64,000 bases of DNA. Origin: Elusimicrobiota bacterium (lineage in GTDB: Bacteria; Elusimicrobiota; Elusimicrobia; UBA1565; UBA9628). The stretch is from contig JAGWUP010000008.1 of the NCBI GenBank assembly GCA_028868375.1, positions 4,751 through 68,750 on the forward strand, in the 5' to 3' direction. The translations under genes and the position numbers were made by a program. Within the stretch, counting starts at the first letter, position 1. The number at the start of each line of letters is the position of its first letter. This document shows positions 3,345-59,153 of this stretch, in pieces. The notes under the pieces were generated by a model. That model was not told where the DNA came from and did no database searches. It saw only the letters and a program-made list of their open reading frames with translations.

Positions 3345-3370
3345 CCGGACCCCGCGCCGGTCTAGGCCTA

Positions 3371-3380
3371 TAGGTCTTTA
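3371..3380 (+). promoter_or_regulatory. TAGGTCTTTA motif plus CCTATAGG palindrome in a low-GC leader ~30 nt upstream of the giant gene
   Basis: Read directly: ctaggcctataggtctttagtcctattccctctagggcc. It lies in the 64-nt AT-richer gap before the ATG at 3409. Confidence 0.3.
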
Positions 3381-3408
3381 GTCCTATTCCCTCTAGGGCC
3401 TACAGCCC

Positions 3409-13990: not shown

Positions 13991-14130
13991 ATCAACATCT
14001 AAATTAGTTAAACTCAGGCACTAAGCTGGCGTAGCCGGCTTGCGTCTGACCGCAGGGAATGGTTTGACTCCGAAGAATTCGGGAAGAAAACCATGGCCGG
14101 ATAGGGAAAATGCGTCAGGCCATGACGTCC

Positions 14131-14349
14131 GGCGCTGCCACGCAATAACATGAACATTCTGGAGGCCCGAGCTTGAGACGATTTCAAGGCGCGAAGAGAG
14201 GGCATGGCGGTAGTCATGCGGGCGATGAGCAACGCGGAAATCGGCCAACCTCGGGCTTCCCCACAGAGCCGGGCCGTTTTTGGGCTGCGCCTTCGTCGCC
14301 CCGCTCCAAAATCGCGCACGGCAGAGCGACCATCTTATTGCGTGGCAGC
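14131..14349. repeat. ~219-bp element bounded by a perfect 18-bp inverted repeat (GGCGCTGCCACGCAATAA ... TTATTGCGTGGCAGCGCC); MITE-like or structured-RNA element
   Basis: Arms at 14131-14148 and 14332-14349 are exact reverse complements. The interior is lower in GC. The right arm ends 5 nt before the transposase-like ATG. A related element is at 58934-59153. Confidence 0.5.
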
Positions 14350-14354
14350 GCCTA

Positions 14355-15257
14355 ATGGGCCGCCCCCAGCGCTTGCAGCTTCCGGGAGCTTGCTATTACG
14401 TGCTGCTCGAGGGAAACAACAGGCAGGATCTCTTCCTGTCGAGCCAGGACCGCCGCCAGTTCTTGGCCCTGCTGCGCTCCTGCAAGGAGCGCCACGAGCT
14501 GAAGGTCTACGCCTATTGCCTGCTGCCGCAGAAGGTCCACTTGCTCGTCGAGACGGACCGGCCCAACCTCGCCGCCGCCATGCAGAACCTGGGCAGCGTC
14601 TATACCAAGCGCTTCAACGCGGCCCACGATGTCTCCGGGCACCTTTTCGCGGGCCGCTACAAGGCCTGGCTGCTGGACAAGGAGCGCTTCCTGGCCGAGG
14701 CCACGCGGGCCATCCACCTGCAGCCCTCGCGCTCCGGCCTCAGGGACAAGCCTTGGCGCTACCCCTGGTCCAGCTGCTCCGCCTACGTGGAGTCCGAAGC
14801 GGGGGAACCCCTGATCGATTCCCAGCCCGTCCTGGCCCTGTTCGCCTCCGGGCGCCTGAAGCAGTCGGTGCGCTACATGCAGTATCTCAAGGACAGGCTG
14901 AAGTCCTCTTCCGCCGTCTTGCTGCCGGTGGCCCGCGGCCAGGTCATCGGCGGAGAGGAGTTTCTGGCGCGCATGCGAGCCAGGGCCGGGCGAGTCGAGC
15001 CGGCCCGGCCATCCCCGGAGGCGGAGCGCCAGGTCCTGGCGGAGGTCGCCAAGCGCCACGGCCTGGAGCCCGAGGAGCTGACGGGGCCCGGCCGGCGCCG
15101 CAGGGTGGCGGCCGCCAGGCGAGAGGCGGCCTACCGTCTGTCCAAGGAATTGCGCCTGGGCGTGGCCGAATTGGGGCGCCTGTTCCACCGCACTCCCAGC
15201 GCGCTCTGCCAGGCCCTGCGGACGGCTGAAATATCAACTAAAAAACTTAACTCCTGA
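14355..15257 (+). CDS. IS200/IS605-type Y1 (HuH) transposase-like protein fused to a DnaA-C-terminal-like HTH domain; HuH motif degenerate (K-V-H)
   Basis: N-terminal YYVLLEGNNRQDLF, then VHLLVETD, then a Tyr-region YTKRFN, match the Y1_Tnp fold. The C-terminal VAAARREAAYRLSKELRLGVAELGRLFHRTPSALCQALR resembles the DnaA C-terminal DNA-binding domain. The first His of HuH is replaced by Lys (14532-14540). Confidence 0.6.
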   Translation: MGRPQRLQLPGACYYVLLEGNNRQDLFLSSQDRRQFLALLRSCKERHELKVYAYCLLPQKVHLLVETDRPNLAAAMQNLGSVYTKRFNAAHDVSGHLFAGRYKAWLLDKERFLAEATRAIHLQPSRSGLRDKPWRYPWSSCSAYVESEAGEPLIDSQPVLALFASGRLKQSVRYMQYLKDRLKSSSAVLLPVARGQVIGGEEFLARMRARAGRVEPARPSPEAERQVLAEVAKRHGLEPEELTGPGRRRRVAAARREAAYRLSKELRLGVAELGRLFHRTPSALCQALRTAEISTKKLNS

Positions 15258-15265
15258 CACTGACC

Positions 15266-15293
15266 CTAGGACCTAAAATAGCGTAGGTCCTTT
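15266..15293 (+). promoter_or_regulatory. AGGACCTA-N8-TAGGTCCT inverted repeat including TAGGTCCTTTA, ~65 nt upstream of the 4939-aa gene
   Basis: Read directly: ctaggacctaaaatagcgtaggtcctttaatatc. The same TAGGTC(C)TTT decamer occurs at 122 and 3371. AGGAGGAG lies further downstream. Confidence 0.35.
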
Positions 15294-15358
15294 AATATCA
15301 GAGGAGGAGCCAAGGGTTCCTACCGCTTTGGCGCCGCCAAAGCTACTCTAAGGGCCTG

Positions 15359-18300
15359 ATGAAGCGCCTGCTGCGCCAGGCCGTGGCCTGCCTGACCGTC
15401 GCCAGCCTGCTGATCACGGCTCCCGGCCTGGGCCTCTACAGCGCTCTAGCCGCCCAAATGGGGGAGGCGGCCGGCGATATCCCCGAGGGCCTGCCGCCGC
15501 GATTGCCGGGCTCGCCGATCGGCCCGGCGGGGGGCGTCGGCATTTCGGCGCAAGCCGCGGCGAATTGGCGGCGGCGTTTGGATGCGGCACGAGCCCTTGG
15601 AGGAGCCGGCGCCGTTTCCCAACCGGCCCCGCCCCAATCGGCCCAATCGGCACCTGCTCAAGCCTGGCGATCGCTACGAGCGTCGGTCGCCGCGGGCTTG
15701 GTCCCGCCGGGCCAGGGCGGGCGGCAGGCGGCTGCGTCTCCGGCGGCTGCGGCGCAGAGCGGCGCAAGCCCCGAGGCCGCGTCGGGATTGGCGGCCAGGC
15801 TGTTCGACCACTTGAAAAATCTGGGCGGCGGACTGCGCCGCTTGGTGTTCGATTCCGAGGAGGAAGAGCCGGCGGAGGAAGTGCCAGCGGCGGAAGTGCC
15901 AGCGGCGGAAGTGCCCGCTGCGGAGGGGCGGCGGTCGCCCGCTTTAGCGCCCGCCCTGGCGCCGGCATCCGAGCCGGATCCAGCGCAGCCGGAGCCGGCG
16001 CAGCCGCCGGCCGTTGCGAAGCCGGTCGGCGCCAGGCATTGGCTGGGAGCCGCGGGGATGACGGCCCTGTCCGGGGCGATCACCTGGAAATTCGGCGCGC
16101 CGAAGCTGGCGGGCTGGGCCGCCGCCTTGATCCACGCGCCGGCCGCCGCCCCGGCGATCGCGGTGGCGCTGACGGCGCTGCTGACTTACAGCACCGCCAA
16201 GCAGCAGTTCGGCGCGCTCTTGGAGCGCCGCCGGGCCCATCGGCTGGCCGAGATCCGCGAGCGGGAGGGCGAGCTGGCCGCGGTCGATTGGGAGCTGGAG
16301 CAGGCGCCCCGTCCCGCTCCCAACACGGCGCCGCACGAGATCGTCGGCTTGGCCTTGATCGTCGCGGCGGCGGCGGCGGGCCACGCGCTCTGGAGCGGCC
16401 CGGGAGCGGTCGGGGGCTTTCTGCTGGGGGCGTGGTTCTCGGATCGTTGGCTTAGCTTGCGACGGGATCGTTTCAAGGAGGACCGGCAGAAGCGCGACGA
16501 GCTCTTGCGCCGGCGCAAGGCCTTGGGCGGCTCCGAGGCGCAAGAGGCCTCGCCGGACGGCCCCGTCGCGGACGCGCTCGAGCCGCCCCTGGGCGGCTCG
16601 CCGCCCAGGGGCCCTCCCGCCGGGCTGTCGCCTCCGGGAACGGAGCCCTCAGCGGCTTCGCAAGGTCCTCGCGTCTTCGAGGACTTTTTCGGTTTTAGGT
16701 GGGTGCGCGGCCGGCTCCACGAGCCGGCCGCCGAGCCCTCTTCGGGACGGCTAGAAACGCTGACGGCCGGAGCGTTGATCCTGGGCTCGGCCTTCGCCGG
16801 CTTCGCCGCCTTCGGCCTGCTTGGGGCGGCGGGGGGATTGGTCGCGGGCTACGCCCTGGCCTTCCATCGGCAGGCCCGGCTGGCGCGCGGCAGCGCCCGC
16901 GAGGTCCTGCCGCTGTCGGCCACGACGGAGCAGGTCATTCGGGCGCTGGCTCGGGACGGGGGCTGGACGCGCCAGCGCTTGCTGGAATTGATGGCGCCCT
17001 TCGGCTTGGGCGAATCCAGCCCGCTCGACGCTTGGCTGGCGGTCCATGATTGGCTGCGCGTCCACGGCGACCGCGAGCAGTTCAAGCGCTTCGACCATGA
17101 GAAGTCCGACCATTCCTGGCGCGAGCTGGCCAATGTCCGCTACAGCGAGGGCCGGCGCGGCGCGCTCGAACGCCTGGCCGAGGTCCAGAAGCATTCCGCC
17201 GGGGCCTTCGTCCGCTTCCCGTACCATCTCTTCGACCTGTTCGTGCTGGGCTATTTCCGGCAGAACATGGCCTACGAGCTGTTCCATTCCGGGGAGGATT
17301 TCCTGGGCGCCCTCCAGCCGGGCCTGCGCGAGAAATACCTGCTCCATGCCGCAAGCCAGGCGGTGGCCGCGCGCGGCTTCAAGCGCTCGCTGCGCGCCCA
17401 GCCGATCTACCGCGCCTTGGACCGCTACCTGTGGACGCCGTGGCTGGGACCCCTGGGGCAGTTCTTGTCGCGCCGCCTGACCCTGGCCGTCGCCTCGGCG
17501 GTGGCGATGGGGGTGCTGGGCGGCTTGGCCCCGGTGCTGACCGTCTTCGGCCTGCCGCTGTTGTCTCTGTCCTTGACCACGATCCCGCTGCTGGGCCCCG
17601 CCCTCATCGCGATCGTCAACGCCCTCCCGGTGCTGGTGGGCTGGCTTCCGTTCTGCGGCCATGCCCTAGCCCCGGTGGCCGCGGCCGCCGCGCAGAAGCT
17701 CTTGGCCGACCTGGTCGTAGGCCCGATGCTCAACACCCTGATCCTGTCGAGCTTCCTGACCTTCCCGCACGCGGTGCGCCAGAGGCTGGCCGAGCTGGAC
17801 GCCGCCGACCCCGCCCGGCGCCGCGGCCTGCGCTCCCAGGAGCTCTGCGCGGCGGCGCTGGCCGTGGCCTCGTCCTCGGCGTACTGGCGCGCCAACTTGA
17901 AGTCGTTCCTGGCGATGATGACGGTCGGCGCCGAGATCGAGGGCATCATGACCTACGCGGACGTCGCCGATCAGGCGGCCAGCGCCGTCAGCGGCGCGCA
18001 CGTGACGCTGTTCCACGCCCTGGGCTCGGCGGTGGAGCGGCCCCGCGGAAAGAGCCTGATCCCCTTCGGCGGGGCGATCACCTGGGGCAACGTCCTGCTT
18101 TACAAGGCGCAGAATTGGCTGGGCTTCAACCTCTCCGACGCGGTGGCCCATGGCGTCTCCGTTTTCATCGGAGACCGGCTGCCGGGGGTGGTCCATGCCC
18201 AGACCCTGCTGGCCGTGGCCGAGGGGCGCTACCGCGGCGCCCGCGGCCCCAAGCCCGCGCCCTTCGACAAGACCCTCTATCGCAAGTCTCCGGGCCAGGT

Positions 18301-21300
18301 CTGGCGGCGCTTGAAGGACCTGGCCAGCCGCGGCGGCGACCTAGAGTCCCGGATCGCCCAGGCCAAGGCGCGGGCCGAGGCGGCGAGGCGGGAACTGGCG
18401 AGCGAGCGCAAGCGCTTCGCGGCGCTGGAGGCTTCCCTGCCGCCCTCGGTGACCCCCGCCCAGCGCGCCGAACTGGAGCGCTTGAACGCGCGCTACGCCT
18501 CCGCCCGGGACGAGGACTACGCCCGCGGCAAGCTGGCGGAGGACGGCGACCTGGCCGCCGCCCCGGACGCGGCGCGGCTGGCGCGCTTGCGGGCGCTCAA
18601 GCAGAGTTACGCGGACGATCTGGTGGCGCGCGACGGGCGGCGCCCGGCCGTCTCCGACGCGCTGGCCGCGCGCCGGGCCCAGCTGCTGGCGCTGGAGCGC
18701 AGCCTCTCCTCCGTCGTGGAGAAGGGGACGGTGGCGCTGCCGAATGGGACGGCGGCCCGCCTGCCGGACGCCACCGTGACGCAGATCGCCCAACTGGTCA
18801 AGACGATCGAGGACCTGCGCTCCCAGGCCAAAGGGGAAATGGCCAACCGCGACGCCGAAAGCCGGCTCTTGGGAGTGCTCGCGCAGGCGCGGCACAACGC
18901 CCTGCGCGAGCGCCGCAACGGGCGGGGGATGAGCGATTTTCACCGCAACCTGGCGCGCCTGGACACCGTGATGAGCCTGGCCCTCTCCCTCAACGAGATC
19001 GCGGCGGCCGAGCAGGCCATCCACCAGATGATGGCCCTGCTGGACGCCAAGATCGCCAAGATCAACGCCGCCGCGCAGCAGAACCAGCAGAACCTGGCCC
19101 AGGCCCAGCAGAATCAGCAGCAGACTCAAAAGTGGAAAGACGAGGCCAACCAGGTCATCAGCGCCGACCAGAGCACCCAGAAGACGATCGTCGACTACGA
19201 GAACCGCACGGCCCTGGCCGCGGAGCGCGTCGGCTCCTTCCAGCACGACCTCTCCGCGCTGATCGGCGTGATCAACGCCCGCGACGGCGGCCAGAGCCGC
19301 GACGCGCTGACGGAGTACGCGCGGCGCCTGGCCCTGCTGCCCCAGGTGGCGGACTGGCGGACCAACGGCAATCCCAACGATTCCTCCGCATTCTCCCTGA
19401 AGACCTTCCAGGACGACCTCTCCCAGGTCGACGGCTATATCCAAAAGGTCCAGGACGGGATCGGGCAGCTGCGCCAGACTCCCCTGGAGGCGGCCGGAGT
19501 GGCCATCATCCTGGTGCCTGGGCCCGACGTGACGATCCACAATCCGACCAAGGAGCAGACGCTGCAGATACTGGCCGACCGCAAGACCTATTGGCAGAGG
19601 CAGTCCCAGCAGTACCGAGACGACCTGGCGCGGATCAATCGGATGATGGATCCGGGCAACACGAACACGACGACCGACGAGTTCGGCGATTCCGCTCCGG
19701 AGTCGCTGCCGCGCTACCTCAGCCAAGAACAGGGCATCGAGCAGACGGCGCGGGCCAATGTCCAGCAGTACGCGGCCCAGATCGACGCGGCCGCCGACCA
19801 GATCAACTCCGTGGCCGGCTCCAACCTGCCCCATCTCTCCGGCCTGCCGCTCGACCAGCTTGAGAGCGTCATCACGAATTACGGCAACCTGGCGCGCGCG
19901 GTCAAGCTTCCGGACAGCGGCGGCAACGACGCGGCCTACCTGGCCTCGATGAACATGCTCTCCTTGGCCAAGCTCATCCCCTACGCGGCCGACAACGTGG
20001 TCCAGTGGGCCAAGGCCGACGCGACGATCACCTCGATCAACTCGGCGATGGCCACGACCCTGCCGCAGGCCAAGACGCGCCTGACGGCCATCGTCCAGGT
20101 GTTCGACGACGTCCTGGCCGACGACGACGCCGACGTGGCCTACGTCACCCATGGCGGCGACCCGCAGGCCCTGCTTAACCGCAAGATCGATCTGCTGCAG
20201 AACAAGGTGCTGCCCGCGCTGCAGGGAGCCGACGATCTGCTGCGCAACGTGCTGATTCCCTACCAGCGGCAGAGCATCGCCCAGGTCCAGGTCGACGCCT
20301 CGGCGCCGCTCTACCAGCTTCTGACCAGCCAGCAGACGCTGGCCCAGAGCGTCTCGCAGCTCTACAACTCCGACGTGGCCTGGGCCCTGGCCAGCTTCGG
20401 CGGCAGCAAGAGCGACCCCGCCGGCAGCCGCGCCAGCATCGCGGCCTGGAAGAAGACGATCGAGCAGAACTTGAACGGCTACGACGACGCCCAGGGCCAC
20501 CATGAGGGCGTCAACGAGTACATCGTCGAGGTCCAGCATCGCAAGGATCCCAACTACGCGGGGCCGGAGACGACGGACTATTTAAAGGACCCCAACTATC
20601 CGGACGGCGGCCCCTTCAGCCTGCCGCGCAAGATCGCCCTATACTCCGCCGAGCGCGCCCAGCGCGTCGCCCAGCTCAACGCCCAGGACGCCCAGATCAA
20701 CGACATCCTAAGCCATATCGAGACCGTCTCCAAGGGGCGCTACAACCTGCAATCCTTCCGCCTGCCCACCGACCTGACCGGCGACGCCGCCGGCGCCAGC
20801 CGGGCCCAGGCGCTGTTCGACTCCAACCTGATCCAGAACCTCGGCGGAGAGCTCCAGCAGATCGCGGCCGACAACCAGTCCTCCGGCGCCGGAATCTCGG
20901 TGGCGGACCAAGGCTCGGCCGGGCCTCCGACCGGCACGCAGCCGCCGATCACGGCCTCCGACGCCCAGACCCTTTCCCTGCTGGCCTTGGACGCGGCCAA
21001 GCGCATCGTCCCGTCTTCCTTGCAGCAGCCGCAGACCGCGCCGGCCTCCTACGCCTTGGCCCGCTTGCTCTACTCCAACGGCACCCTCTCGGCCGCCCAG
21101 GACGCCCTGACCAACCAGATCCCCGTGGCCGAGACGGTCCTGGCCCATGCCCAGGCGGTGCTGACGGCGGCGGACGACACCAGCAAGGACGAGGCCTACG
21201 TCGACTCCAATGGGACCAGCGAAAGCGCCGACTCCGTCTACGCGCGCAAGGTGGCGCTTTTTAGCAGCCTCAACGCCTTTTTGCAGGAGGGGGCCAACTT

Positions 21301-24300
21301 CTTCAACCTGAAGGGGCAGTGGGACATGGCCTCGCTCAACACCGTCGACCAGGTCTCCCAATATTACGGCGGACTGGGCACGATCTACGGCGGCGCCTCC
21401 AGCACCACCAGCGGGGAGCTGCAGGCGGCCACCCAGATGAAGGCGGCGCTGCAGACGACGCTGGACGGCCTGGAGCAGAGCAGGACCAAGGTCAAAGGCT
21501 GGATGTCCCAGCTCGACGATCCGCACGACAGCGCCCTGGCGCGCGTCAGCGAATCGGTGGCCACCCTCCAGGACCAGACCCGCAAGGTCCTGGAGGCCAA
21601 CGTCCAATGGCAAGGCGTCCGAGACCAATTGCGGCGCAGCGACGATATCGTCGCGGCCAAGTTGGGCGAGCTCGACGAGGCCCAGCAGCGGCTGGTCCGC
21701 CTGCTCGACCGCCCCGACGTCAGCGGCGGCGGCTTGCCGCCGGACTTGATCAACCGCATCGAGGCCCTCCGTCTGGCCGGCGGAAGCTGGGCCTGGGGCG
21801 GCTCCGACGGCAGTCCCGAGGCGATCGCCGTCAAGAAATCGGACTTCGGCGGCTTCGTCGAATCTCTCCTTGACGCCCTGGGCGCGCGCGGCTCCTCGGA
21901 GAACCTGCCGCTGTTGCGCCAGGACCTGCTCTCCAACCCCGGCGGGCTCTCGGCCCTGCTGCCGGACGCCAAGATGCTCGAGTTCGGCGGCGACGACGGC
22001 TTCTACTTGATCTATCAGTCCCGCTTCTCGGTGCCGAACGGCCTTGAGACCGGCACCGACGTCACCCTGGGCAACGCGGCGCGCCTGGGCGGCAACAACA
22101 TCTCGGTGGGGGGCTACCAGCTCGCCAGCCAGCCCAGCGACGCCAGCGCCCCCTACGGCGACAAGGGGGCGTGGGTGCAGGTGGAAAGCCTGCGGGGCAA
22201 GAACTGGGTCAACTACCTCAACGTCGACCTGCACCGCTTCATCTTCGACATCCCTCCGGACGCCAAGCCGATCTCGCAATTGCGCGAGAGCCGCCTCCTG
22301 GTCTTCGACGACTTCGCCATGCTGCTCTTCGGCGACCGCCTCTACGTCGGCCTGGCCGGCTTCGCCGACCGGGCCGTCGACCAGCCCGGCCAGCACCCGT
22401 CCTATTACGGCGGCAACCTCAAGACCTCGATCCGCCTCAACGGGGTCATGCGCCTCAACGCCGAGCAGAGGGAGCTTTTCGCCAACGATCCGCGCAAGTT
22501 CCTGGAGACGGTCAACCTGGACTTCACCGGCTTCGATCCGGACTTAAACCAGACCTTCGCCATCCAGGCCCACGGCGACAACAAGCATTACTCGCGCACC
22601 CAGGTCGGCCCCAGCTTCGACGTGGGCAAGCTCTTGGGCAGCAAGGACGCCTTCACACTCGACCTCTACTGGGCCAAGACGACGGGCAGCGACGACATCC
22701 ACCAGGAATCGCTGGGCGTCTCCATCCTGAAGGGCTTCACCCTGGCCGACGCCGACGGCAAGCCCTGGGCCGTCATCGACAACCAGGCCAACGCCGAGCT
22801 GGGCCAGCAATACCCGGCCTACCGGGACCGCCTGTCGGTGACCCTGCCGCGCCAGGGCATCGTCGTCAGCGGCCAGGGCCAGATCCTGGGCCCCACCAGC
22901 GCCTATTACGGTGAGATCTCGAAGAGCTTCGGCGACCACTCGACGGTGAGGGTGGGCTACGGCTCGCGCTACGTCGGGATCAAGGACCGCCTGTCGCTGG
23001 AGATGAACACCTCCTTCACCCTGCGGCAGCTCTATGAAGCGGTGCTCGCCCACGGCCGCTCGCAGCTCAAGGGAGGCCGGCAATTAAGCCGCTTCAACAC
23101 GGATATTAAGAACTTCTTCGACTCCGACCGGGACGGCGGCGGCTCGGGAACGCGCGTGGAGGCCTTGCGCCGCGTCTTCGATCAGGACGTGGGCCGCAAG
23201 CTGCTGACCCAGGACATCGGAACCTTGCGCCGGGACATCGACCAGTTGCGCGGCGCGGGCGCCTTCCTTGATAACACCCGCGTGCAGGGGATGATCGGCT
23301 TCATCTCCAATCCCGTCTCCAGCGACCAGGCCGACGTCACGGTCGGCGGAGGCCCGGTGGCCGCCACCCAGACGGAGCTGACGCTGACCCGCTCGCAGAA
23401 GGCGCTGATCCAAGCCAAGACCCAGGCCCTGTTCTTGGACGGCCTGCGCCTGCAGCAGCGGCTGCTGGAGCTGTCGCGGCGCTGGCAGGAGGACGTGGCC
23501 CAGATCGCGCGCGCGCAGTGGGACTTGAAGCTGGCTTCCTTCATGCGCCAGAACGCCGGCACCGAGGCCCTGCGCCGCCAGGCGGGAGTCCTGGCCGCGG
23601 ACGCCTCGGACCGGCTGCACCAGGCCCTGCTCGACTATAACGCCTTGTCCGGCCGCTCGCCGGACGCCCCGGTCCCGTTCAAGGATCTCAGTGCCTCCGA
23701 CCTGCGCGAGCTGACGGCCGCCATCCGCGGCACGCTGTCCGGCGGCGACCGCCTCAAGGCCATCCTCCACGAGCTCGATCCGGCTCAAATGAAGGAGCGG
23801 CTGGGTCCGGAGGCCTTCAACCTCCTCGACTGGCTGCCGTTTCTCGATCGCATGACGCTGAGCATCGGCGCCCAGCTTCAGGACTCCCTGGCCAACCAGG
23901 CGATGACCGTCGGGGTCAGCTTGCGCATACCGGTCTACGATCCCTCCTCCGGGCACGCGGACAAGGCCTACCGCCTGGAAAGCCGGGCGACGATCGCCCA
24001 GATGGCCGAGCTGCAGGCGGAGCGGCGGCTTGAGGCCGATCGCCAGGACGCGCAGGCCCGGCTGAGCGCCGGACAGGCCAAGGCCGCCCAGGCCGGCCTG
24101 CCTCGCGCCGCGCGCGCCTTGTCCTTGGCCATTCGAGCCTACCGCAACGGCTTGATCGGCGAGGCCGAGCTGCAGCAGGCCTTCGATACCTGGCGCTGGT
24201 ACGCGCGCGAGGCCTTGGACGGCGAGATCGAGTCCTCCCTGTCCGCCGCCTGGGCCGCCTCCGGCCGATACCTGGCCGGCTCGACGGACGACGGGAATGG

Positions 24301-27300
24301 GGACGGGAGCGGGAACGAGAACGGCAGCCTCGCCTTGGGCTCGCTGGACGAGGCGTTCTCGCAAGCCGAGTCGCGCTCGGGCAGCCTGGCCGAGGTGGCG
24401 CTGCGCGAGCAGGCCGCGGCCGAGATGGCGCGCGACAACGCCCATCGCATCCAGAAGGTCCTCCTCGATTTGAACATCGGCACCGGCTTGACGGCCAGCG
24501 GCGACGGCTGGCTGCCGGCCGTCGGCCTGACCGGCTACCCGGTGATGCCGATCGTCCGCTTCGAGTTCAAGCCGGAGGAATTGCGGGAGCTGCAGGCCGA
24601 GGAGGGGCGCGGCCAGACGGAGTACTACCGGCAGCTCAAGGCCGAGCTGGAGGGGGAGCTGGCCTTGGAGCTCTATCAGAGCGTCGTCGCCTATCAAAGC
24701 GCCTCCGCCGCCGTCTCGCGCTACGACGACTCCCTGCTGCCGGGGCTGCGGGAGCGGGCCGAGGTCGAGGGGCAAGGCAGCGGCGGGGCCGCCGTCAAGG
24801 CCCAGCGGCGCCTGGACGCGGCCTTGGAGAAGCGCGCGCAGGCGGCCTTGGCGCGGCGGCAGGCGCTGGCGACGCTGAACTTCCTCTTGGGGCGCCGGGG
24901 CGACGCTCCGTTGCAGGTGGGAATCGACGCGGACCAGGCCCTGGCCTGGCTGCGCGCCGCCCTCTCGCGGGAGAACCCGGTGGCGGCGCGGCAGCGGCTG
25001 CTTAAGGCGCGCGTTCAGACGGCCCAGGCCGTCGAGACGGTGGTCGACAAGGACCTCAGGGCCCAGCAGCTTGCCCTGGAGCCGGTCTCGCTGGTGGCGC
25101 GCTCGCTGGGGCGGCTGATCGATGTCTTGGGCGGCGGCAAGCCCGGACGTCCCCAACTGCTGGCGGAGGCCCGCGCGCAGACCTTGAGGGAGCAGCGCGC
25201 GCTCGACGCCTATCCAGGCCAGCGGCGAGCCGCGATCGCGCAGGCGAAAGCCCAGTTGAACTTGGTCCGCTCCCGCTTGGAAAGCCTCTCCAACGGCGGC
25301 GACGCCGCCCAGCGCGAGCTGTTGCTCGGCCGCGAGCGGATACTCTTGGGCGCCCTGTGCGCCTTGGGCGCCGACGGGCAGGACGCCGCCCCGCAGAGCT
25401 ACTCCGAGCTCCCGCATTCCTTCGACGAGTTGGGCGAGCGCCTGGCGCAAGCGCGACAGGACATGTCGGCGCGACAGCCGGGCTCGCCGGTCGAGCTGCT
25501 GGCGCCGGCAACGCAGCGGCAGCGGCCCGCCGGCTTCGCCCGCTATTACTACGCCCAGCAGACGCTGGGAAAGGTTGCCATCGACAAGAGCTACGTCGAG
25601 GGCTGGCTTGAGACGCGGCTGCGCGACTACGAGACCGATCCGAAGGTCCTGCTGCGCCTGGCGCAGTTGAGCGGCCGCAAGGCAGACGAGCTTCATCGCG
25701 TCGAGGTCGCGGGCTCGCGCGCCCAGGGCGAGATGCTGGCGGCCGATTTCGAGGCGGAGGCGCGGCTGCTGCGCTGGGCCGAGACCGCGCGCGGGCAGGA
25801 AGGGGCGGATTTGCGGGCCTCCCTGCTCAAGGAGCTGGAGGCACGGAGAGCCGAGATCGTCGCCCTGTTGAACCTTCCCCCGGACACCGGTCTCGACTCT
25901 CTGCTGGCCCTGGTGCCCGCCCAATCGCGGGGGGACGGCGATCCCTCCGCGCTTGCGAGCGGCTTCTCCGGGCAGATCCGCCGGCTGGGGCTGGGCGAGC
26001 TGGAGAGATCATTGTTCGCCGACGGGCAATTGGCGGGCTTGGGAACGGATGCGGACCTCCTCTCCCGCTTGCGCGCCGGCCTGCTGGCCGAGCGGATGAG
26101 CTACGACGGCCTGACCCCCGTCCTGGCCTTCGGCCTCTTCCGCGGCACGCCGACGGGCGGGGCCGTCCTCGAGGTCCCCGACCCGCGCCAGATCGAGCAT
26201 GGGTTGGACAACATGCTCTCCGAGGCGCTGCGCAAGGACTTGGAATCCTCCGGCCGGCTGCGGGAGCTGTCCCTGGGCCTGCGCGCGCTGATGGCCAAGG
26301 TCCAGGACGAGGAGGTGGAGGTCGAGCGCAGCGCCCGCCTGGTCCAGGCGGCGGAGGCGGACTATCGCGCCCAAATGGGCCTGGTGGGCGAGGGCGGCGA
26401 CCTCGCCGAGGCGGAGGCGGCGCGCTCCCGGCTGCTCAAGGCCTGGCTGGGATTCTCGCGGCGGCTCTCCGGGGCCAGGGCCGATTTCGTCGAGCTCGTC
26501 ACCGAGCTGGAGGCCCTCAATCCCGGCCGGCGGGCCGGCTTAAGGCCGCTGGTCCATCCCCTGCGCGCGCAGCCGCCGACCTTGAGGTCCGACCCCCGCC
26601 GGCGGCTCTTGTCCTATTGGACCGACCGGATGCTGGACGCGGATTTCCGCGCCGACCTGTCCCGCCGGCTGGACTTGATCGCCGCTCGCGCCTCCCCCGC
26701 CCAAGGGAAGGCCTTGTCGCAGTTGCGCCGGCGCCTGGAGGAGGACGCCGGGCTGTACTCGACCGCGGATCGGGACGCCGCGGCCGTGCTGGCCAAGGAC
26801 TTCTCGGACGCGGAGCGCCTCGACCTGCTCTCGCGCAACGATCGGGAAGGCAAGCGGGAGGCGCTGAGCTTCGATCTGGGCCGGCTCTTGGAGGCTTGCG
26901 GCGGGCTGTCGCAGCGCGACGATCCGTTGGTGGCCTTCCTGGTCCGGGACATCGACGCCCAGGCCCGGCGCGCCGCCGCAGCGCGCGACGACTTCGCCGC
27001 GCTAGACGGCGCGCTCAGGCAGGCCGCCTGGAGCGCGGACGACCCGGCGCGGGGGATCTTCCAGCGCTTGGAGGCCGCGCGCCAAACGATGGAGACGGCG
27101 CGGCAGGCCCTCTGGGCGGACGACGACGGTCTGGAAGAGAACGCGACGCGGGTGCTGCTCAAGGACAGCCGGCTGGACGACTTCTTGAAGGCGCAGCAGC
27201 GCTACGACGCCGAGGTCGTGGGGACCTTCCAATCCGAGGCCGTGCGCCGCGATCGCTCCCTGGCCTGGCGTCTCGACGCCTTCTTCGACCTCGACGCCGC

Positions 27301-30178
27301 CCTCGACCGGCAGATCGACGCCGCGCGCGGGGGCCGCGGGATGCTGGCCATGGACGCCTTGATCGCCCTGGAGCGCTCGCGCTTGCTGGCCGCGCGCTGG
27401 GAGGGCCGTCCCCCCGGCGAGCTGGACGCGCTGGCCGCCAACTTGCAGGCCCTGCGCGACAGGCGGCAGGCCTGGCGCTCCGGCGCCTCCGACGTGGAGC
27501 CGCTCTACGCGGTGACCAGGATCGAGCGCGACGGCCGCCGCCTCTGGAGCGTGGAGGGCTGGATGACGCGCCGAGAGTTCGAGGCCGAGCGCGCCGCCGG
27601 GCGAGTCAAGTCCGTCGACGGGCGCATGATCTGGAGCGGGGGGGCAGCCCCGCGCGAGTTGATCGGCGGCATCGACGCGGCGCGCGCTGACTTGGACTCG
27701 GCCCGGTCGGCCGCGCGGGACAACGGAGCGGTCCTTTCCCGGCAGGGCCTGCTGGAGCGCTACGATTACGTGCCGGATCGCCCCTTGCGCGGGGACCGGG
27801 CCCCCGCCCGCGAGGGGCTCTCCGTCGAGGATCTTTTCGGCGCCGCGGGCCTGGGCCGCCAAGGCCGGCTGTTATTCTTCAAGGCGCCCAAGCCCGGCGA
27901 GCCCGCCGGCTCCGAGCACCAGGCCTTGGACCCGATCGCGGCGCTGAGCCTGAGCCCGGACGATTACGTCGTCTACGCCTACGACGGCGGCAAGCCCTTG
28001 GACAAAGGCGCCTTCCCGAGCCTGGAAAGCCTCAAGGACTCCGAGCGCCGCAGCGATTTTGCGCGGCTGACTCTTTCCCCCTCGGGGGCGCGGGATCTGG
28101 GCGCGCGCCTGGAGCGGCAGCGCCAGGCGGAGCTCGAAGCCGGCTGGGTCGACGTCAAGCTGGACGGCTACGGCTTCGCGCGCGACGCCAAGGGCGACGT
28201 CGTCCAGATTTACCTGACCCGAGACGACTTCCGCGCCCAGCGAAAGGCCTTCGCCAACGCCGCGCGCGACTTGGAGGCGCTGCGGGCCGCAAGCCGCCGC
28301 GCCCAAGAGCGGGAGCAGCGCGCCAAGGGCGAGCTGGAGGCCCGGCGCGCGGCGCTCGAGCATGCCCGACCGGCCTACGAGGCCGCCCGGGCGCGGCGCT
28401 CAAGCGACAAGGCGGGCTTTGATTCCGCCCAGGCCGCTTTCGACGCCCTGTCGAAGGCCTCCAGCCGGGCGCAGGCGGACTATGAGGCCGCCAACGCCGC
28501 GGCGCAGAACGCCAGGCGGGCGGTGACGGAGGAGAAGAGCACATTGGCGCGGTCGAAGGCCTGGAGCCTCTATCGCAGCCGCGATCTATCCCTGTCGCTC
28601 GACGCCGACGGGACGATCGTCGCCGCGGCGGCGCAGCCCGTCTACGGCGCGCAGACCCTCTCGCAGCCGGTGGCCTCGGGAGGGCCGGTCGCCCGGGTGC
28701 TCTCCGGGGAGCTGCTGGCGGCGGCCCTGGACTCCCAAGGCCGCCTGGTCGGCTATTACCAGGACCCCGAGGCGCTGGCGGCCGACGCCCGGCGCTGGAA
28801 GCTGGTGACCGTGTCCCTGGGCGCGGGCTCCGAGCTGCCGGCGGCGGCGAGGACGGTCGATCCCCGCGCGCGCCTGGACCATTACGAGCTGCCGCTGCCC
28901 GGAGGGGGCTCGGCGCCCATCGCCCTCAACCGCCGCTACCTGATCGCCCAGGTCCAAGACGCCCGCGCCAAGCTCCATGCCGCGGACCATTACGCCGTCC
29001 TGCCTTGGCATTGGGGCGACTTGCTGCTCGAGCTTCCGCGCGGGGTGGCCGGCGCCCCGCTGGAATTATTGGGCGGCCGAGATCCCCGCCAGCAGCATTA
29101 CCTGGGCCGCGCGGCCATGTACCGGACGGAGGGCGGCTCCACGGAGCGTCAGGGTTTCTTCCGCCGGGCGGCGGGCTTGATCGACATACTGGACTTCCTG
29201 CCCGATCCGGTCGAGCGCTTCTTCGACCCCAGCCAGTTCCCGGATCATGTCGCCGTCGATTCCCCGCTGCTGCCCGGCCAGAGCGTGTTCGACAAGGGCA
29301 TGCGGACCTTGGACGGCAGAAAGGACATCCACTTCGGCGCCACGGCGCTGCGGCGCGAGCTTTCCTACTCCCTGGAGGATCTCGCCGCCGAACAACGGCG
29401 CGCCCTGGAGCATTTCCACGGCGGCGAGGAGACGCTGCTCGTCTCAAGCTGGAGGGGGCGCTCCGGCCTCTACCAGGACTCCACGCGCTCCGGCGCCGCG
29501 GGGCCGCAAGCCCTGCGCTCCGCCCTGAATGAGCCCTCCTTCTCCGCCGAGCTGCCGGACAGCCTGGCCGTCGAGGGCTTGCGGCGCGTGGTGCGGCCGC
29601 GCCTGGGCGCCGACGAGCTGGCCCAGGAGGAGGCGGCGCTGAAGGGCTATCCCGAGGCCTTCTTGCGGCGGCTGGGCCTGAGGCGCTCAAGGCAAGCCGG
29701 GCTTGAACAGCGCTCGGCCCGGGCCCAAGCGACTCTTAAGCGCGCCCAGGCGGCGCGCCGCGGGGCTCATGCGCGCGCCGAGGCGCTGTGGTCGCGGCGC
29801 GAGGCGCTGGCCGAGCGCGTCTCCGCCTACGACGCCGCGCGGACCCGGTTGGAGCGCTCGCGCGCAAGGCAGGCGGAGCTGGCCCGCAGCCTGGCGTTCT
29901 GGCGGCACGAGCTGGCGCGGCTGAACGCGCGGGCCCAGGGCTTGAGGCCCGCGGGTCCCCGGCGCGATTTTCCGGCGAAGGCATCCCCTCTTGCCGCCCC
30001 GTCGGCAGCTCCCGCGGCCCCCGCCCGACTGCCCGCCCCCGCTCCCGCGACCCATGGGGAAAAACCGGCGCCAGCCTCGCGAAGCCTGCCTTGGGGCCTG
30101 GGCTTGGCCGGCGCCATCCTGACGGCCGCGCTGTTGTGGTGGAAGCGGCGCTGGGCCTTAAGGCCTAGTCATTCATAG
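15359..30178 (+). CDS. giant envelope protein (4939 aa): signal peptide, Pro/Ala-rich linker, polytopic membrane domain, coiled coils, beta-rich region, TolC/OEP-like module, long helical C-terminal part, C-terminal TM anchor
   Basis: Single 14.8-kb ORF. N-terminal MKRLLRQAVACLTVASLLITAPGLG. At least 10 hydrophobic helices in aa 220-900. A Q/N-rich coiled coil follows. The TolC-like segment (about 23350-24900) includes VSLRIPVYD, AIRAYRNGLIGEAELQQAFDTW and LATLNFLLG. The C-terminus is LPWGLGLAGAILTAALLWWKRRW. Confidence 0.7.
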   Translation: MKRLLRQAVACLTVASLLITAPGLGLYSALAAQMGEAAGDIPEGLPPRLPGSPIGPAGGVGISAQAAANWRRRLDAARALGGAGAVSQPAPPQSAQSAPAQAWRSLRASVAAGLVPPGQGGRQAAASPAAAAQSGASPEAASGLAARLFDHLKNLGGGLRRLVFDSEEEEPAEEVPAAEVPAAEVPAAEGRRSPALAPALAPASEPDPAQPEPAQPPAVAKPVGARHWLGAAGMTALSGAITWKFGAPKLAGWAAALIHAPAAAPAIAVALTALLTYSTAKQQFGALLERRRAHRLAEIREREGELAAVDWELEQAPRPAPNTAPHEIVGLALIVAAAAAGHALWSGPGAVGGFLLGAWFSDRWLSLRRDRFKEDRQKRDELLRRRKALGGSEAQEASPDGPVADALEPPLGGSPPRGPPAGLSPPGTEPSAASQGPRVFEDFFGFRWVRGRLHEPAAEPSSGRLETLTAGALILGSAFAGFAAFGLLGAAGGLVAGYALAFHRQARLARGSAREVLPLSATTEQVIRALARDGGWTRQRLLELMAPFGLGESSPLDAWLAVHDWLRVHGDREQFKRFDHEKSDHSWRELANVRYSEGRRGALERLAEVQKHSAGAFVRFPYHLFDLFVLGYFRQNMAYELFHSGEDFLGALQPGLREKYLLHAASQAVAARGFKRSLRAQPIYRALDRYLWTPWLGPLGQFLSRRLTLAVASAVAMGVLGGLAPVLTVFGLPLLSLSLTTIPLLGPALIAIVNALPVLVGWLPFCGHALAPVAAAAAQKLLADLVVGPMLNTLILSSFLTFPHAVRQRLAELDAADPARRRGLRSQELCAAALAVASSSAYWRANLKSFLAMMTVGAEIEGIMTYADVADQAASAVSGAHVTLFHALGSAVERPRGKSLIPFGGAITWGNVLLYKAQNWLGFNLSDAVAHGVSVFIGDRLPGVVHAQTLLAVAEGRYRGARGPKPAPFDKTLYRKSPGQVWRRLKDLASRGGDLESRIAQAKARAEAARRELASERKRFAALEASLPPSVTPAQRAELERLNARYASARDEDYARGKLAEDGDLAAAPDAARLARLRALKQSYADDLVARDGRRPAVSDALAARRAQLLALERSLSSVVEKGTVALPNGTAARLPDATVTQIAQLVKTIEDLRSQAKGEMANRDAESRLLGVLAQARHNALRERRNGRGMSDFHRNLARLDTVMSLALSLNEIAAAEQAIHQMMALLDAKIAKINAAAQQNQQNLAQAQQNQQQTQKWKDEANQVISADQSTQKTIVDYENRTALAAERVGSFQHDLSALIGVINARDGGQSRDALTEYARRLALLPQVADWRTNGNPNDSSAFSLKTFQDDLSQVDGYIQKVQDGIGQLRQTPLEAAGVAIILVPGPDVTIHNPTKEQTLQILADRKTYWQRQSQQYRDDLARINRMMDPGNTNTTTDEFGDSAPESLPRYLSQEQGIEQTARANVQQYAAQIDAAADQINSVAGSNLPHLSGLPLDQLESVITNYGNLARAVKLPDSGGNDAAYLASMNMLSLAKLIPYAADNVVQWAKADATITSINSAMATTLPQAKTRLTAIVQVFDDVLADDDADVAYVTHGGDPQALLNRKIDLLQNKVLPALQGADDLLRNVLIPYQRQSIAQVQVDASAPLYQLLTSQQTLAQSVSQLYNSDVAWALASFGGSKSDPAGSRASIAAWKKTIEQNLNGYDDAQGHHEGVNEYIVEVQHRKDPNYAGPETTDYLKDPNYPDGGPFSLPRKIALYSAERAQRVAQLNAQDAQINDILSHIETVSKGRYNLQSFRLPTDLTGDAAGASRAQALFDSNLIQNLGGELQQIAADNQSSGAGISVADQGSAGPPTGTQPPITASDAQTLSLLALDAAKRIVPSSLQQPQTAPASYALARLLYSNGTLSAAQDALTNQIPVAETVLAHAQAVLTAADDTSKDEAYVDSNGTSESADSVYARKVALFSSLNAFLQEGANFFNLKGQWDMASLNTVDQVSQYYGGLGTIYGGASSTTSGELQAATQMKAALQTTLDGLEQSRTKVKGWMSQLDDPHDSALARVSESVATLQDQTRKVLEANVQWQGVRDQLRRSDDIVAAKLGELDEAQQRLVRLLDRPDVSGGGLPPDLINRIEALRLAGGSWAWGGSDGSPEAIAVKKSDFGGFVESLLDALGARGSSENLPLLRQDLLSNPGGLSALLPDAKMLEFGGDDGFYLIYQSRFSVPNGLETGTDVTLGNAARLGGNNISVGGYQLASQPSDASAPYGDKGAWVQVESLRGKNWVNYLNVDLHRFIFDIPPDAKPISQLRESRLLVFDDFAMLLFGDRLYVGLAGFADRAVDQPGQHPSYYGGNLKTSIRLNGVMRLNAEQRELFANDPRKFLETVNLDFTGFDPDLNQTFAIQAHGDNKHYSRTQVGPSFDVGKLLGSKDAFTLDLYWAKTTGSDDIHQESLGVSILKGFTLADADGKPWAVIDNQANAELGQQYPAYRDRLSVTLPRQGIVVSGQGQILGPTSAYYGEISKSFGDHSTVRVGYGSRYVGIKDRLSLEMNTSFTLRQLYEAVLAHGRSQLKGGRQLSRFNTDIKNFFDSDRDGGGSGTRVEALRRVFDQDVGRKLLTQDIGTLRRDIDQLRGAGAFLDNTRVQGMIGFISNPVSSDQADVTVGGGPVAATQTELTLTRSQKALIQAKTQALFLDGLRLQQRLLELSRRWQEDVAQIARAQWDLKLASFMRQNAGTEALRRQAGVLAADASDRLHQALLDYNALSGRSPDAPVPFKDLSASDLRELTAAIRGTLSGGDRLKAILHELDPAQMKERLGPEAFNLLDWLPFLDRMTLSIGAQLQDSLANQAMTVGVSLRIPVYDPSSGHADKAYRLESRATIAQMAELQAERRLEADRQDAQARLSAGQAKAAQAGLPRAARALSLAIRAYRNGLIGEAELQQAFDTWRWYAREALDGEIESSLSAAWAASGRYLAGSTDDGNGDGSGNENGSLALGSLDEAFSQAESRSGSLAEVALREQAAAEMARDNAHRIQKVLLDLNIGTGLTASGDGWLPAVGLTGYPVMPIVRFEFKPEELRELQAEEGRGQTEYYRQLKAELEGELALELYQSVVAYQSASAAVSRYDDSLLPGLRERAEVEGQGSGGAAVKAQRRLDAALEKRAQAALARRQALATLNFLLGRRGDAPLQVGIDADQALAWLRAALSRENPVAARQRLLKARVQTAQAVETVVDKDLRAQQLALEPVSLVARSLGRLIDVLGGGKPGRPQLLAEARAQTLREQRALDAYPGQRRAAIAQAKAQLNLVRSRLESLSNGGDAAQRELLLGRERILLGALCALGADGQDAAPQSYSELPHSFDELGERLAQARQDMSARQPGSPVELLAPATQRQRPAGFARYYYAQQTLGKVAIDKSYVEGWLETRLRDYETDPKVLLRLAQLSGRKADELHRVEVAGSRAQGEMLAADFEAEARLLRWAETARGQEGADLRASLLKELEARRAEIVALLNLPPDTGLDSLLALVPAQSRGDGDPSALASGFSGQIRRLGLGELERSLFADGQLAGLGTDADLLSRLRAGLLAERMSYDGLTPVLAFGLFRGTPTGGAVLEVPDPRQIEHGLDNMLSEALRKDLESSGRLRELSLGLRALMAKVQDEEVEVERSARLVQAAEADYRAQMGLVGEGGDLAEAEAARSRLLKAWLGFSRRLSGARADFVELVTELEALNPGRRAGLRPLVHPLRAQPPTLRSDPRRRLLSYWTDRMLDADFRADLSRRLDLIAARASPAQGKALSQLRRRLEEDAGLYSTADRDAAAVLAKDFSDAERLDLLSRNDREGKREALSFDLGRLLEACGGLSQRDDPLVAFLVRDIDAQARRAAAARDDFAALDGALRQAAWSADDPARGIFQRLEAARQTMETARQALWADDDGLEENATRVLLKDSRLDDFLKAQQRYDAEVVGTFQSEAVRRDRSLAWRLDAFFDLDAALDRQIDAARGGRGMLAMDALIALERSRLLAARWEGRPPGELDALAANLQALRDRRQAWRSGASDVEPLYAVTRIERDGRRLWSVEGWMTRREFEAERAAGRVKSVDGRMIWSGGAAPRELIGGIDAARADLDSARSAARDNGAVLSRQGLLERYDYVPDRPLRGDRAPAREGLSVEDLFGAAGLGRQGRLLFFKAPKPGEPAGSEHQALDPIAALSLSPDDYVVYAYDGGKPLDKGAFPSLESLKDSERRSDFARLTLSPSGARDLGARLERQRQAELEAGWVDVKLDGYGFARDAKGDVVQIYLTRDDFRAQRKAFANAARDLEALRAASRRAQEREQRAKGELEARRAALEHARPAYEAARARRSSDKAGFDSAQAAFDALSKASSRAQADYEAANAAAQNARRAVTEEKSTLARSKAWSLYRSRDLSLSLDADGTIVAAAAQPVYGAQTLSQPVASGGPVARVLSGELLAAALDSQGRLVGYYQDPEALAADARRWKLVTVSLGAGSELPAAARTVDPRARLDHYELPLPGGGSAPIALNRRYLIAQVQDARAKLHAADHYAVLPWHWGDLLLELPRGVAGAPLELLGGRDPRQQHYLGRAAMYRTEGGSTERQGFFRRAAGLIDILDFLPDPVERFFDPSQFPDHVAVDSPLLPGQSVFDKGMRTLDGRKDIHFGATALRRELSYSLEDLAAEQRRALEHFHGGEETLLVSSWRGRSGLYQDSTRSGAAGPQALRSALNEPSFSAELPDSLAVEGLRRVVRPRLGADELAQEEAALKGYPEAFLRRLGLRRSRQAGLEQRSARAQATLKRAQAARRGAHARAEALWSRREALAERVSAYDAARTRLERSRARQAELARSLAFWRHELARLNARAQGLRPAGPRRDFPAKASPLAAPSAAPAAPARLPAPAPATHGEKPAPASRSLPWGLGLAGAILTAALLWWKRRWALRPSHS
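15872..15925 (+). repeat. in-frame 15-bp tandem repeat (~3.5 copies) encoding (A)EVPAA
   Basis: gcggaggaagtgcca / gcggcggaagtgcca / gcggcggaagtgccc / gctgcggagg, located inside the giant gene. Confidence 0.6.
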
Positions 30179-44766: not shown

Positions 44767-44838
44767 GAGCCCGTAGCTCAGGGGTAGAGCACGCGCCTTT
44801 TAAGCGTGGGGTCGTGGGTTCGAATCCCACCGGGCTCA
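44767..44838 (+). tRNA. tRNA-Lys (anticodon UUU)
   Basis: Acceptor GAGCCCG/CGGGCTC. Anticodon stem CGCGC/GCGTG with loop CTTTTAA. T-arm GTGGG-TTCGAAT-CCCAC. No encoded CCA. TATAAT at 44751-44756. Confidence 0.85.
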
Positions 44839-44854
44839 CGGTTTTCCGAATCTC

Positions 44855-44926
44855 GCCTCCATCGTCTATCGGCTAGGACGCGGCCCTTTCAAGGCTGAAA
44901 GAGGGGTTCGACTCCCCTTGGAGGCA
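44855..44926 (+). tRNA. tRNA-Glu (anticodon UUC)
   Basis: Acceptor GCCTCCA/TGGAGGC. Anticodon stem CGGCC/GGCTG with loop CTTTCAA. T-arm AGGGG-TTCGACT-CCCCT. Confidence 0.8.
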
Positions 44927-58943: not shown

Positions 58944-59153
58944 TATGATGATTTTGGACGGGCGCTTTTGTAGCGAGACAAGGAGCGACGAGCGATGTGG
59001 GCGCAACCCAAAAGCGTCCGTCCCCTTCGGGGCGACCCGATGCCGGCCGATTTCATCGTTGCTCGTCGGTCACATGGCCTGCGGCCATGCTCCCTCCTCG
59101 CGCCTCGAAATCGCCACGGACTCGGGTCGCCAAAATGATCATATTATTGCGAC
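58934..59153. repeat. ~220-bp element bounded by a 24-bp near-perfect inverted repeat (GTCGCAATAATATGATGATTTTGG / CCAAAATGATCATATTATTGCGAC) in the ftsQ-ftsA intergenic region; contains nested stems and a CCCC-UUCG-GGGG tetraloop hairpin
   Basis: 23/24 complementary arms. The left arm overlaps the ftsQ TAA. It shares the CGCAATAAYATGA...TCATRTTATTGCG termini and its length with the element at 14131-14349. Confidence 0.5.

Follow-up and report, generated by a model that had tools for sequence, protein, structure and literature searches.

A transposase-derived gene upstream of a giant gene

We analysed a 64,000-nt stretch of the genome of an Elusimicrobiota bacterium (GenBank assembly GCA_028868375.1, contig JAGWUP010000008.1, positions 4,751 to 68,750 of the forward strand), hereafter the window, in which a transposase-derived gene lies at 14355-15257. 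The open reading frame (ORF) is uninterrupted and encodes 300 aa. It is preceded by a gene for a 2595-aa protein, a Wzy_C (O-antigen-ligase-like) gene at 11193-12929 and a TrkA-type K+ channel gene at 12965-13990, and is followed by a gene for a giant protein of 4939 aa at 15359-30178. A longer reading frame from a TTG at 14280 is also possible in the ORF listing; because all homologues begin with MGRP, the ATG at 14355 was taken as the start. A deposited partial protein of an Elusimicrobia metagenome-assembled genome (MAG), P0001, is 100% identical to the window protein. A sequence-only reading had described the product as a Y1/HuH transposase-like protein with a degenerate HuH motif and a DnaA-type helix-turn-helix (HTH), likely domesticated as a regulator beside the giant-gene promoter. 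The features of the gene itself and its neighbour are as follows.

14355..15257, plus strand: coding sequence of a 300-aa TIRYT-type protein, catalytically dead, with a Y1/HUH fold and a DnaA-domain-IV-like HTH (ORF, homologues and AlphaFold2 model)
14388..14732, plus strand: Y1/HUH transposase-fold domain, about residues 12-126 (Pfam PF01797 and Foldseek)
14532..14540, plus strand: degenerate HuH motif K60-V61-H62, first metal-binding His replaced by Lys (placed by hhalign on H59-M-H61 of 4ER8)
14709..14726, plus strand: degenerate 'Y---NP' motif A119-I-H-L-Q123-P, Tyr replaced by Ala and Asn by Gln (aligned to Y115-I-Y-I-N119-P of Escherichia coli TnpA-REP)
15015..15251, plus strand: C-terminal DnaA-domain-IV-like HTH, about residues 221-299, recognition helix R279-T-P-S-A-L-C-Q286 (Pfam, profile and fold)
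15359..30178, plus strand: giant gene, 4939 aa, probable regulatory target (orthologues lie downstream of the transposase-derived gene)

The protein joins a Y1/HUH transposase fold to a DnaA-domain-IV-like helix-turn-helix

In the alignment to PF01797 that had been proposed with the sequence-only reading, residues 18-109 matched Pfam Y1_Tnp with 28.4 bits, above the threshold of 23. Among the NCBIfam models the best was that of the repetitive extragenic palindromic (REP)-associated tyrosine transposases (RAYTs), NF047646, with 60.2 bits, below its cutoff of 80. The transposase fold was not found when the PDB was searched by sequence and was recovered by the fold search. Using an AlphaFold2 model built from the family alignment (mean predicted local distance difference test score 88), Foldseek placed the N-terminal half best on E. 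coli TnpA-REP 4ER8 (E=7.6e-7) and then on the ISDra2, IS608 and IS200 TnpA proteins; the matches to 4ER8, 2XMA, 2VIC and 2F4F, with ISDra2 and IS608 TnpA among them, had a probability of 1.00. The transposase-like N-terminus called from the sequence is thereby confirmed, and the motifs quoted for it, YYVLLEGNNRQDLF (residues 14-27), VHLLVE (61-66) and YTKRFN (83-88), are all present. Its attribution to the IS200 family holds for the Y1 fold but not for classical IS200, the closest group being the RAYT-like class 2, TIRYT subclass 2.1.

The C-terminal likeness to the DnaA DNA-binding domain was also borne out. Pfam Bac_DnaA_C matched residues 226-289 with 28.4 bits (E=1.7e-6), slightly below the threshold of 31.5, and a precomputed PF08299 match is present in many clade members. 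The family profile matched the DnaA proteins of Aquifex, Mycobacterium tuberculosis and E. coli through domain IV, Aquifex being the best (E=1.5e-8), and the C-terminal 74 residues of the model superimposed on the M. tuberculosis DnaA DNA-binding domain with a root-mean-square deviation of 1.6 Å over 74 columns. Homology of the C-terminus to DnaA domain IV is thus well supported. No AAA+ ATPase domain was matched by the window protein in the Pfam and NCBIfam profile searches.

Conservation of the recognition helix, R-T-P-S-A-I-S-Q, reaches at least 93% within the clade, and the catalytically intact relatives carry the similar R-D-P-S-x-V-S. The E. coli DnaA base contacts R399, P423, D433, H434, T435 and H439 correspond to R(Q), V, T, P, S and Q, so that D433/H434/T435/H439 are replaced by T/P/S/Q in the window-gene family. 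Being near-invariant, like that of the intact relatives and unlike DnaA at the base contacts, the recognition helix therefore fits a site of the terminal inverted repeat (TIR) type better than a DnaA box.

The active site is lost across the Elusimicrobia clade

The sequence-only reading had located a degenerate HuH, K-V-H, at codons 14532-14540, which the alignment to 4ER8 confirmed, and had predicted loss of nuclease activity from that one residue. The loss extends further. When the E. coli TnpA-REP sequence, verified to be identical to chain 4ER8_A, was aligned to the family profile, Ala119 (codon 14709-14711) fell at the position of the catalytic Y115 and Gln123 at that of the metal-binding N119, within what is the class-2 signature 'Y---NP' (Quentin et al. 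2018, PMC6006769). Three of the four active-site residues, the first His, the Tyr and the Asn, are thus gone from the window protein.

The active site was then tallied in one alignment of 194 sequences, comprising 117 of the near clade and 77 of a distant group. The His-u-His pair and the Tyr were all intact in 0 of the 117 clade members, whereas 75 of the 77 distant sequences kept them. Taken singly, the first His of the HuH is present in 12/117, the catalytic Tyr in 64/117 and the Asn of Y---NP in 1/117 clade members, against 75/77 of the outgroup in each case. The HuH and Tyr positions are unconstrained in the clade, where 64 different combinations occur, and 96 other columns of the clade alignment are at least 90% conserved. 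Y14, Y83, Y102 and H121 are near-invariant in the clade and equally conserved in the catalytically intact relatives. Free variation at the active site, together with the 96 conserved columns and ratios of nonsynonymous to synonymous substitution rates (dN/dS) of 0.02-0.26 between the closest clade pairs, indicates that catalysis was lost long ago and that the protein was retained for another role.

Two Desulfuromonadales loci outside the clade, L014 (1895-2836) and L066 (10001-10939), encode proteins 32-34% identical in which the HuH and Tyr are also lost (SLK/D and AVH/H), which suggests a separate inactivation, or inactivations, of TIRYTs outside the Elusimicrobia. Neither TIRs nor TIR relics were detected at these two loci, and the giant gene is absent nearby. 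Because these dead members lack both TIR relics and an adjoining giant gene, the link to the giant gene is specific to the Elusimicrobia clade.

The gene is single-copy, under purifying selection and at a conserved address

About 115 full-length Elusimicrobia homologues (~300 aa), 48-63% identical, were found in separate assemblies. The near homologues that carry a taxon label are all Elusimicrobia, except one MAG labelled Proteobacteria. A clear gap separates them from the distant relatives, which are 27-37% identical and occur in Nitrospirota, Desulfobacterota and others. As the dN/dS values indicate, the clade is under purifying selection. The transposase-derived gene has one copy in the window, and each of ten GTDB species-representative Elusimicrobia genomes holds one locus, as the copy-number check proposed with the sequence-only reading anticipated for a domesticated gene.

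A giant ORF on the same strand follows the gene in 14 of the 17 loci that have enough flanking DNA. The giant genes at these loci encode 4,000-6,000 aa, and in 11 of the loci (L003-L012 except L007, and L083 and L084) the giant ORF matches the 4939-aa protein of the window with 36-48% identity over 900-3,100 aa; L007 gave no match in this comparison, and the P0031 contig was left out for lack of DNA sequence. One inserted stretch of ~1.8 kb separates the transposase-derived gene from the giant gene in L008. In relatives, the transposase-derived gene is often preceded by this K+ channel gene or by a further giant gene. The 4939-aa protein has a single Pfam match, an OEP/TolC-like segment at residues 2846-2941, together with a hydrophobic N-terminal segment and short tandem peptide repeats (PAAEV three times), and its orthologues reach at least 5,940 aa (L084). 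Clade-wide loss of the active site, low dN/dS, single copy number and this synteny make the case for domestication stronger than the sequence-only reading had argued.

Boxes flanking the gene are relics of transposon ends

Two short boxes flank the gene, and the pattern that defines them, TTAANNNCWGRCAC, has these two matches only in the window.

14008..14021, plus strand: upstream relic transposon-end box TTAAACTCAGGCAC (match to the pattern; its reverse complement is the TIR tip of intact relatives)
15247..15260, plus strand: downstream relic transposon-end box TTAACTCCTGACAC (overlaps the stop codon, in the position and orientation of the right TIR in intact elements)

The clade consensus of the box is the 14-nt sequence TTAAAGYCTGRCAC. 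In relatives it lies 27-106 nt 5′ of the start and 4-35 nt past the stop and almost nowhere else: in 16 loci, 30 of 74 core matches fell within the gene-adjacent 1.25% of the sequence, where 0.9 were expected (binomial P ~2e-37, the loci being related to one another). The boxes are kept across genomes whose proteins have diverged to ~50% identity.

The intact relatives are bounded by TIRs that read GGGGTCAGRYCTTG..., with variants such as GTGTCAGACTTGCC and the tip GGGGTCAGRYCTT; these are placed 45-60 nt ahead of the start on the left and overlap the stop on the right. The clade boxes share the sequence GTGYCAGRCTTTA with these TIRs. Because the reverse complement of the clade box, GTGYCAGRCTTTAA, equals the TIR tip of the intact relatives and occurs at the same two places, the boxes are fossils of the ends of such elements, which are known as TIRtrons. 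What remains is the tip GTGYCAGR (read ...CWGRCAC) at both ends in the expected positions, over a length of ~14 nt only.

In relatives the upstream box adjoins a conserved extended -10 element (TGCTAnAAT). Since the spacing to it (8-18 nt) and the orientation of the box vary, the upstream box resembles an operator more than a -35 element. The downstream box of L008, with the GGNCC cluster described below, adjoins the giant gene, 1.8 kb from the stop of the transposase-derived gene, and in L002 and L086, both without the giant gene, the downstream box is absent. By its placement in L008 and these two losses, the downstream box behaves like part of the upstream control region of the giant gene. 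L085 retains a box overlapping the stop codon, with no giant gene after it.

Three other identities of the box were considered. A sigma-54 promoter, to which the TGGCAC within the box would point, was rejected, since most loci lack the -12 TTGC element or have it at the wrong spacing. A fixed -35 element is unlikely, given the variable distance to TGCTAnAAT and an orientation that flips between loci. A DnaA box was rejected as well: the flanks contain no TTWTNCACA, and the protein has other residues at the base-contact positions.

Full palindromes, TGGTGTCWGACACCA, make up the upstream boxes of L002 (9900-9990, two copies) and L086 (~7960-7975), which belong to the subclade that lacks the giant neighbour. 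A full palindrome is the classic operator form for a dimeric HTH protein. Among the intact relatives, TIRYT genes are doubled within one locus in L081 (10001-11613, adjacent and on the same strand) and in L074 (318-2224, ~900 nt apart), and the right-end TIR tips are doubled in L049, L052, L055 and L071.

A hairpin, an inserted element and other cis-elements

Two further features surround the gene, and both had been pointed out in the sequence-only reading as the setting of the gene.

15262..15299, plus strand: GGNCC box cluster and hairpin, then a T-rich tail (stem 15268-15275 with 15284-15291, loop 15276-15283)
14131..14352, unstranded: 222-bp inverted-repeat-bounded insertion resembling a miniature inverted-repeat transposable element (MITE), between the upstream box and the ATG, specific to this genome

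The palindrome at 15268-15291 reads AGGACCTA/TAGGTCCT. Thirteen loci share a GGNCC cluster with hairpin behind the downstream box; it starts within 0-25 nt of the box and usually ends in a T-rich tail. Its nine-pair helix has a standard pair in 78% of cells; covariation is modest, with double changes in 4/9 pairs and an invariant core. The cluster may be a terminator, an RNA leader or a set of protein-binding boxes; simple promoter and terminator scans made no call for the hairpin at 15268-15291 and found no promoter. The sequence-only reading had proposed DNA-binding assays on this palindrome. It is indeed present, but the best candidate binding sites are the relic boxes at 14008-14021 and 15247-15260 rather than the palindrome alone.

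The arms of the 222-bp element are 31 nt long and 84% complementary. At 58921-59160, just upstream of an ORF read as ftsA from its first residues, lies a second copy that is turned round relative to the first and 73% identical to it; the copies range in size over ~225-240 bp and share an inverted-repeat tip ...CTGCGTCGCAATAATATGAT.... The element is absent from all related loci. It folds strongly (z = -5.5), and Rfam, searched at a permissive E-value, gave no match in 13900-15450, so that a known RNA in the upstream intergenic region was rejected. The folding stretch is a repeated, inverted-repeat-bounded element and not a leader shared with relatives; it would be MITE-like or belong to an unassigned structured RNA family.

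Several observations concern the neighbourhood. Directly 5′ of the other giant gene (3409-11196, the 2595-aa gene, with a ResIII/DEAD-like segment at residues 1796-1879), a cluster of AGGNCYTA / GGTCTTTAGTCCTA boxes at 3361-3402 resembles the GGNCC cluster past the downstream box (e.g. GGTCCTTAGTCCCA in L004 and L005); the TIR-relic box is not present there. This cluster may be a cis-element common to giant-gene leaders. A near-perfect 19-nt palindrome, GCTTTGGCG-C-CGCCAAAGC, at 15325-15343 ends ~15 nt before the ATG of the 4939-aa gene (15359) and could be an operator or a 5′-leader hairpin. ARAGORN called an 87-nt tRNA-Trp at 13109-13195, within the K+ channel coding sequence and with no Rfam support, which is probably a false positive; genuine tRNA-Lys and tRNA-Glu genes lie at 44767-44839 and 44855-44926, respectively.

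Relation to known Y1 and DnaA families

The domain architecture is already known. Subclass 2.1 of TnpA-Y1 combines a RAYT-like Y1 core with a Bac_DnaA_C-like tail (Quentin et al. 2018, PMC6006769), and Quentin et al. treat it as one and the same group as the TIRYTs that Di Nocera et al. described in 2013 (PMC6006769, PMC3733652), tyrosine transposases flanked by TIRs with a GGGGWSAS tip, the whole unit being the TIRtron (PMC3733652). The window protein shares with TIRYTs the two-domain layout of RAYT-like Y1 core and DnaA-C/HTH tail and the size of ~300 aa; the TIRs on either side of its 27-37% identical relatives end in the published GGGGWSAS tip, which the window boxes match in sequence and position. 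The HTH fusion is not a feature of domestication, because it is ancestral and already present in catalytically intact relatives. Unlike the published members, all of which are stated to conserve the HuH and catalytic Tyr (PMC3733652, PMC6006769), no clade member has an intact active site; the clade is also single-copy and syntenic and retains only ~14-nt tips, which are direct in some genomes including this one. Neither Elusimicrobia nor inactive members are mentioned in PMC3733652 or PMC6006769, and inactive TIRYTs or this Elusimicrobia clade were not described in the literature searched. Thus, a dead, syntenic clade that retains TIR tips appears to be undescribed there.

RAYT/TnpA-REP proteins (E. 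coli YafM, 4ER8) provide the best structural match and the best NCBIfam model and are likewise single-copy, vertically inherited 'domesticated' Y1 proteins. RAYTs, however, are active nucleases with HuH and Y---NP, are flanked by high-copy dispersed GTAG-tagged REP hairpins and have no C-terminal HTH. No REP family was found around the window gene; TAGGACCTA-like words number 8 in the window against 2.1 expected, and the flanks carry locus-specific TIR-tip boxes. The TnpA proteins of IS200/IS605 (IS608, ISDra2) share the Y1/HUH fold and PF01797, but are ~130-155 aa long, lack an HTH and carry a Y---Q signature; they have subterminal hairpins where TIRYTs have TIRs, and they are multi-copy, mobile and catalytically active. 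DnaA shares the HTH of domain IV, homologous at the profile level and superimposable; the window-gene family differs in having no AAA+ domain, in its base-contact residues and in a conserved box that is not a DnaA box.

A parallel in another protein family is TldR, reportedly a TnpB-derived transposon protein exapted as a transcription factor. TldR is alike in being a transposon-encoded DNA-targeting protein that lost its nuclease and was retained as a regulator, and is unlike in being an unrelated, RNA-guided protein, whereas recognition here would be between protein and DNA at relic ends.

Discussion

The explanation that we consider probable is that the gene encodes an exapted, catalytically dead transposase that binds the relic ends of its former element and regulates itself and probably the giant gene. 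In this scenario, an ancestral TIRtron would have inserted upstream of a giant envelope-protein gene in the ancestor of an Elusimicrobia clade; the active site (His-u-His, Tyr and Asn) would then have been lost, and vertical inheritance as a single-copy gene of the host would have followed. Of the protein, the parts for DNA binding (Y1 fold and DnaA-domain-IV-like HTH) would have been retained, and the former TIR tips would have been kept as two TTAAAGYCTGRCAC boxes, one in the gene's own promoter region and one between the stop codon and the giant gene. The protein would bind these boxes sequence-specifically, regulating itself at the upstream box and, at the downstream one, controlling giant-gene transcription, and the two boxes might be bridged through dimerisation of the Y1 domain, the core of which is normally dimeric. 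The computations show the fold, the loss of catalytic residues, purifying selection, single copy, synteny, and the distribution and TIR origin of the boxes; from these we infer that the boxes would be bound, that regulation would have one sign or the other, and that the DNA may loop. The role of regulator that the sequence-only reading had assigned is supported to this extent, as an inference from cis-element conservation and synteny.

A bolder version of this scenario, which we regard as doubtful, is a transpososome-like, non-catalytic paired-end complex on the relic ends, with the HTHs placed on the boxes. The Y1 core, as a dimer, would either link the two boxes or hold the adjacent GGNCC hairpin in the form of single-stranded DNA or RNA, and the complex would act as a switch that insulates or opens transcription into the 15-kb giant gene. 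If this were true, regulation would be built from a fossil transposition synapse, and the protein would be the first HUH/Y1 transposase known as an exapted bacterial transcription factor.

Several observations weigh against exaptation as a regulator of the giant gene. The giant neighbour is absent in 3 of the 17 loci (L002, L085 and L086), and the synteny elsewhere could be mere vertical inheritance of the original insertion site. Both boxes of the window lie on the plus strand and are thus direct, unlike the inverted ends of a TIRtron; the boxes might act as promoter elements or be bound by some other factor, and the hairpin after the downstream box could be merely the terminator of this gene. 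The upstream box is cut off from the ATG by the 222-bp insertion, and the promoter scan detected no sigma-70-like promoter at the gene in the window; if the insertion were removed, box and ATG would be ~110 nt apart, a distance also seen in L006, L007 and L009. Finally, four HTH positions that the clade otherwise conserves are changed in the window protein (Q247R, W248R, W263S and S285C).

The serious rival is a function unrelated to the giant gene, which we judge to be unlikely overall. The protein would be domesticated, for instance as a DNA-binding protein of the nucleoid, of replication or of repair, or solely as an autoregulator; its location would be a frozen accident, and the downstream box would be kept by its overlap with the C-terminal and stop codons or by another factor. 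The three loci that keep the gene without an adjoining giant gene are in keeping with this, as are the box that overlaps the stop in L085 and the published speculation that the DnaA-like domain of subclass 2.1 targets replication forks (PMC6006769). Against it, the downstream box travels with the giant gene in L008, 1.8 kb from the stop, and has been lost from L002 and L086, which lack that gene, these being only three loci in all. Furthermore, coding constraint cannot explain the downstream box, because it lies 4-35 nt beyond the stop in most loci.

It is considerably less probable that the gene is a decaying, non-functional relic, clade-wide or at least in this genome, where the MITE-like element would have severed the promoter box. 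The insertion and the missing sigma-70-like promoter would fit such decay, and so would the divergence of the window protein, which is changed at 7 of the 96 highly conserved columns (median 2), including the four in the HTH, and whose nearest neighbour is 61% identical (median 83%), only a few members being more distant. Yet the frame of 300 codons is intact, 89 of the 96 positions are kept, and ten clade members deviate as much or more, so that the window gene appears by its sequence to be a divergent clade member and not a wreck. The clade dN/dS is far below 1, and the ~115 full-length homologues come from separate assemblies; this level of conservation excludes a neutral relic for the clade. 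Constraint may be relaxed in this one genome.

That the gene belongs to an active TIRtron or IS200-like element in which other residues (e.g. the invariant Y83, Y102 or H121) took over catalysis is scarcely credible: Y14, Y83, Y102 and H121 are indeed near-invariant and TIR-like boxes persist at both ends, but those residues are equally kept in intact relatives and are thus family features rather than replacements, the gene is single-copy with the same neighbours across ~50% protein divergence, the canonical active-site positions vary freely and the window boxes are direct repeats, not inverted ones.

Eukaryotes offer many well-documented cases of transposases domesticated into regulators, whereas such cases are rare in bacteria, and to our knowledge the only accepted 'domesticated' HUH/Y1 members, the RAYTs, are still active nucleases. 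The Elusimicrobia clade provides a clean, testable case, with a clade-wide dead active site, purifying selection, a fixed address and relics of both transposon ends. It offers a concrete candidate operator, TTAAAGYCTGRCAC, and a candidate target, the orthologous envelope-protein gene of 4,000-6,000 aa. For TIRYTs as a family, it gives indirect evidence on the question whether the protein, whichever of its domains is responsible, recognises the TIR tips, since the tips are what selection has kept.

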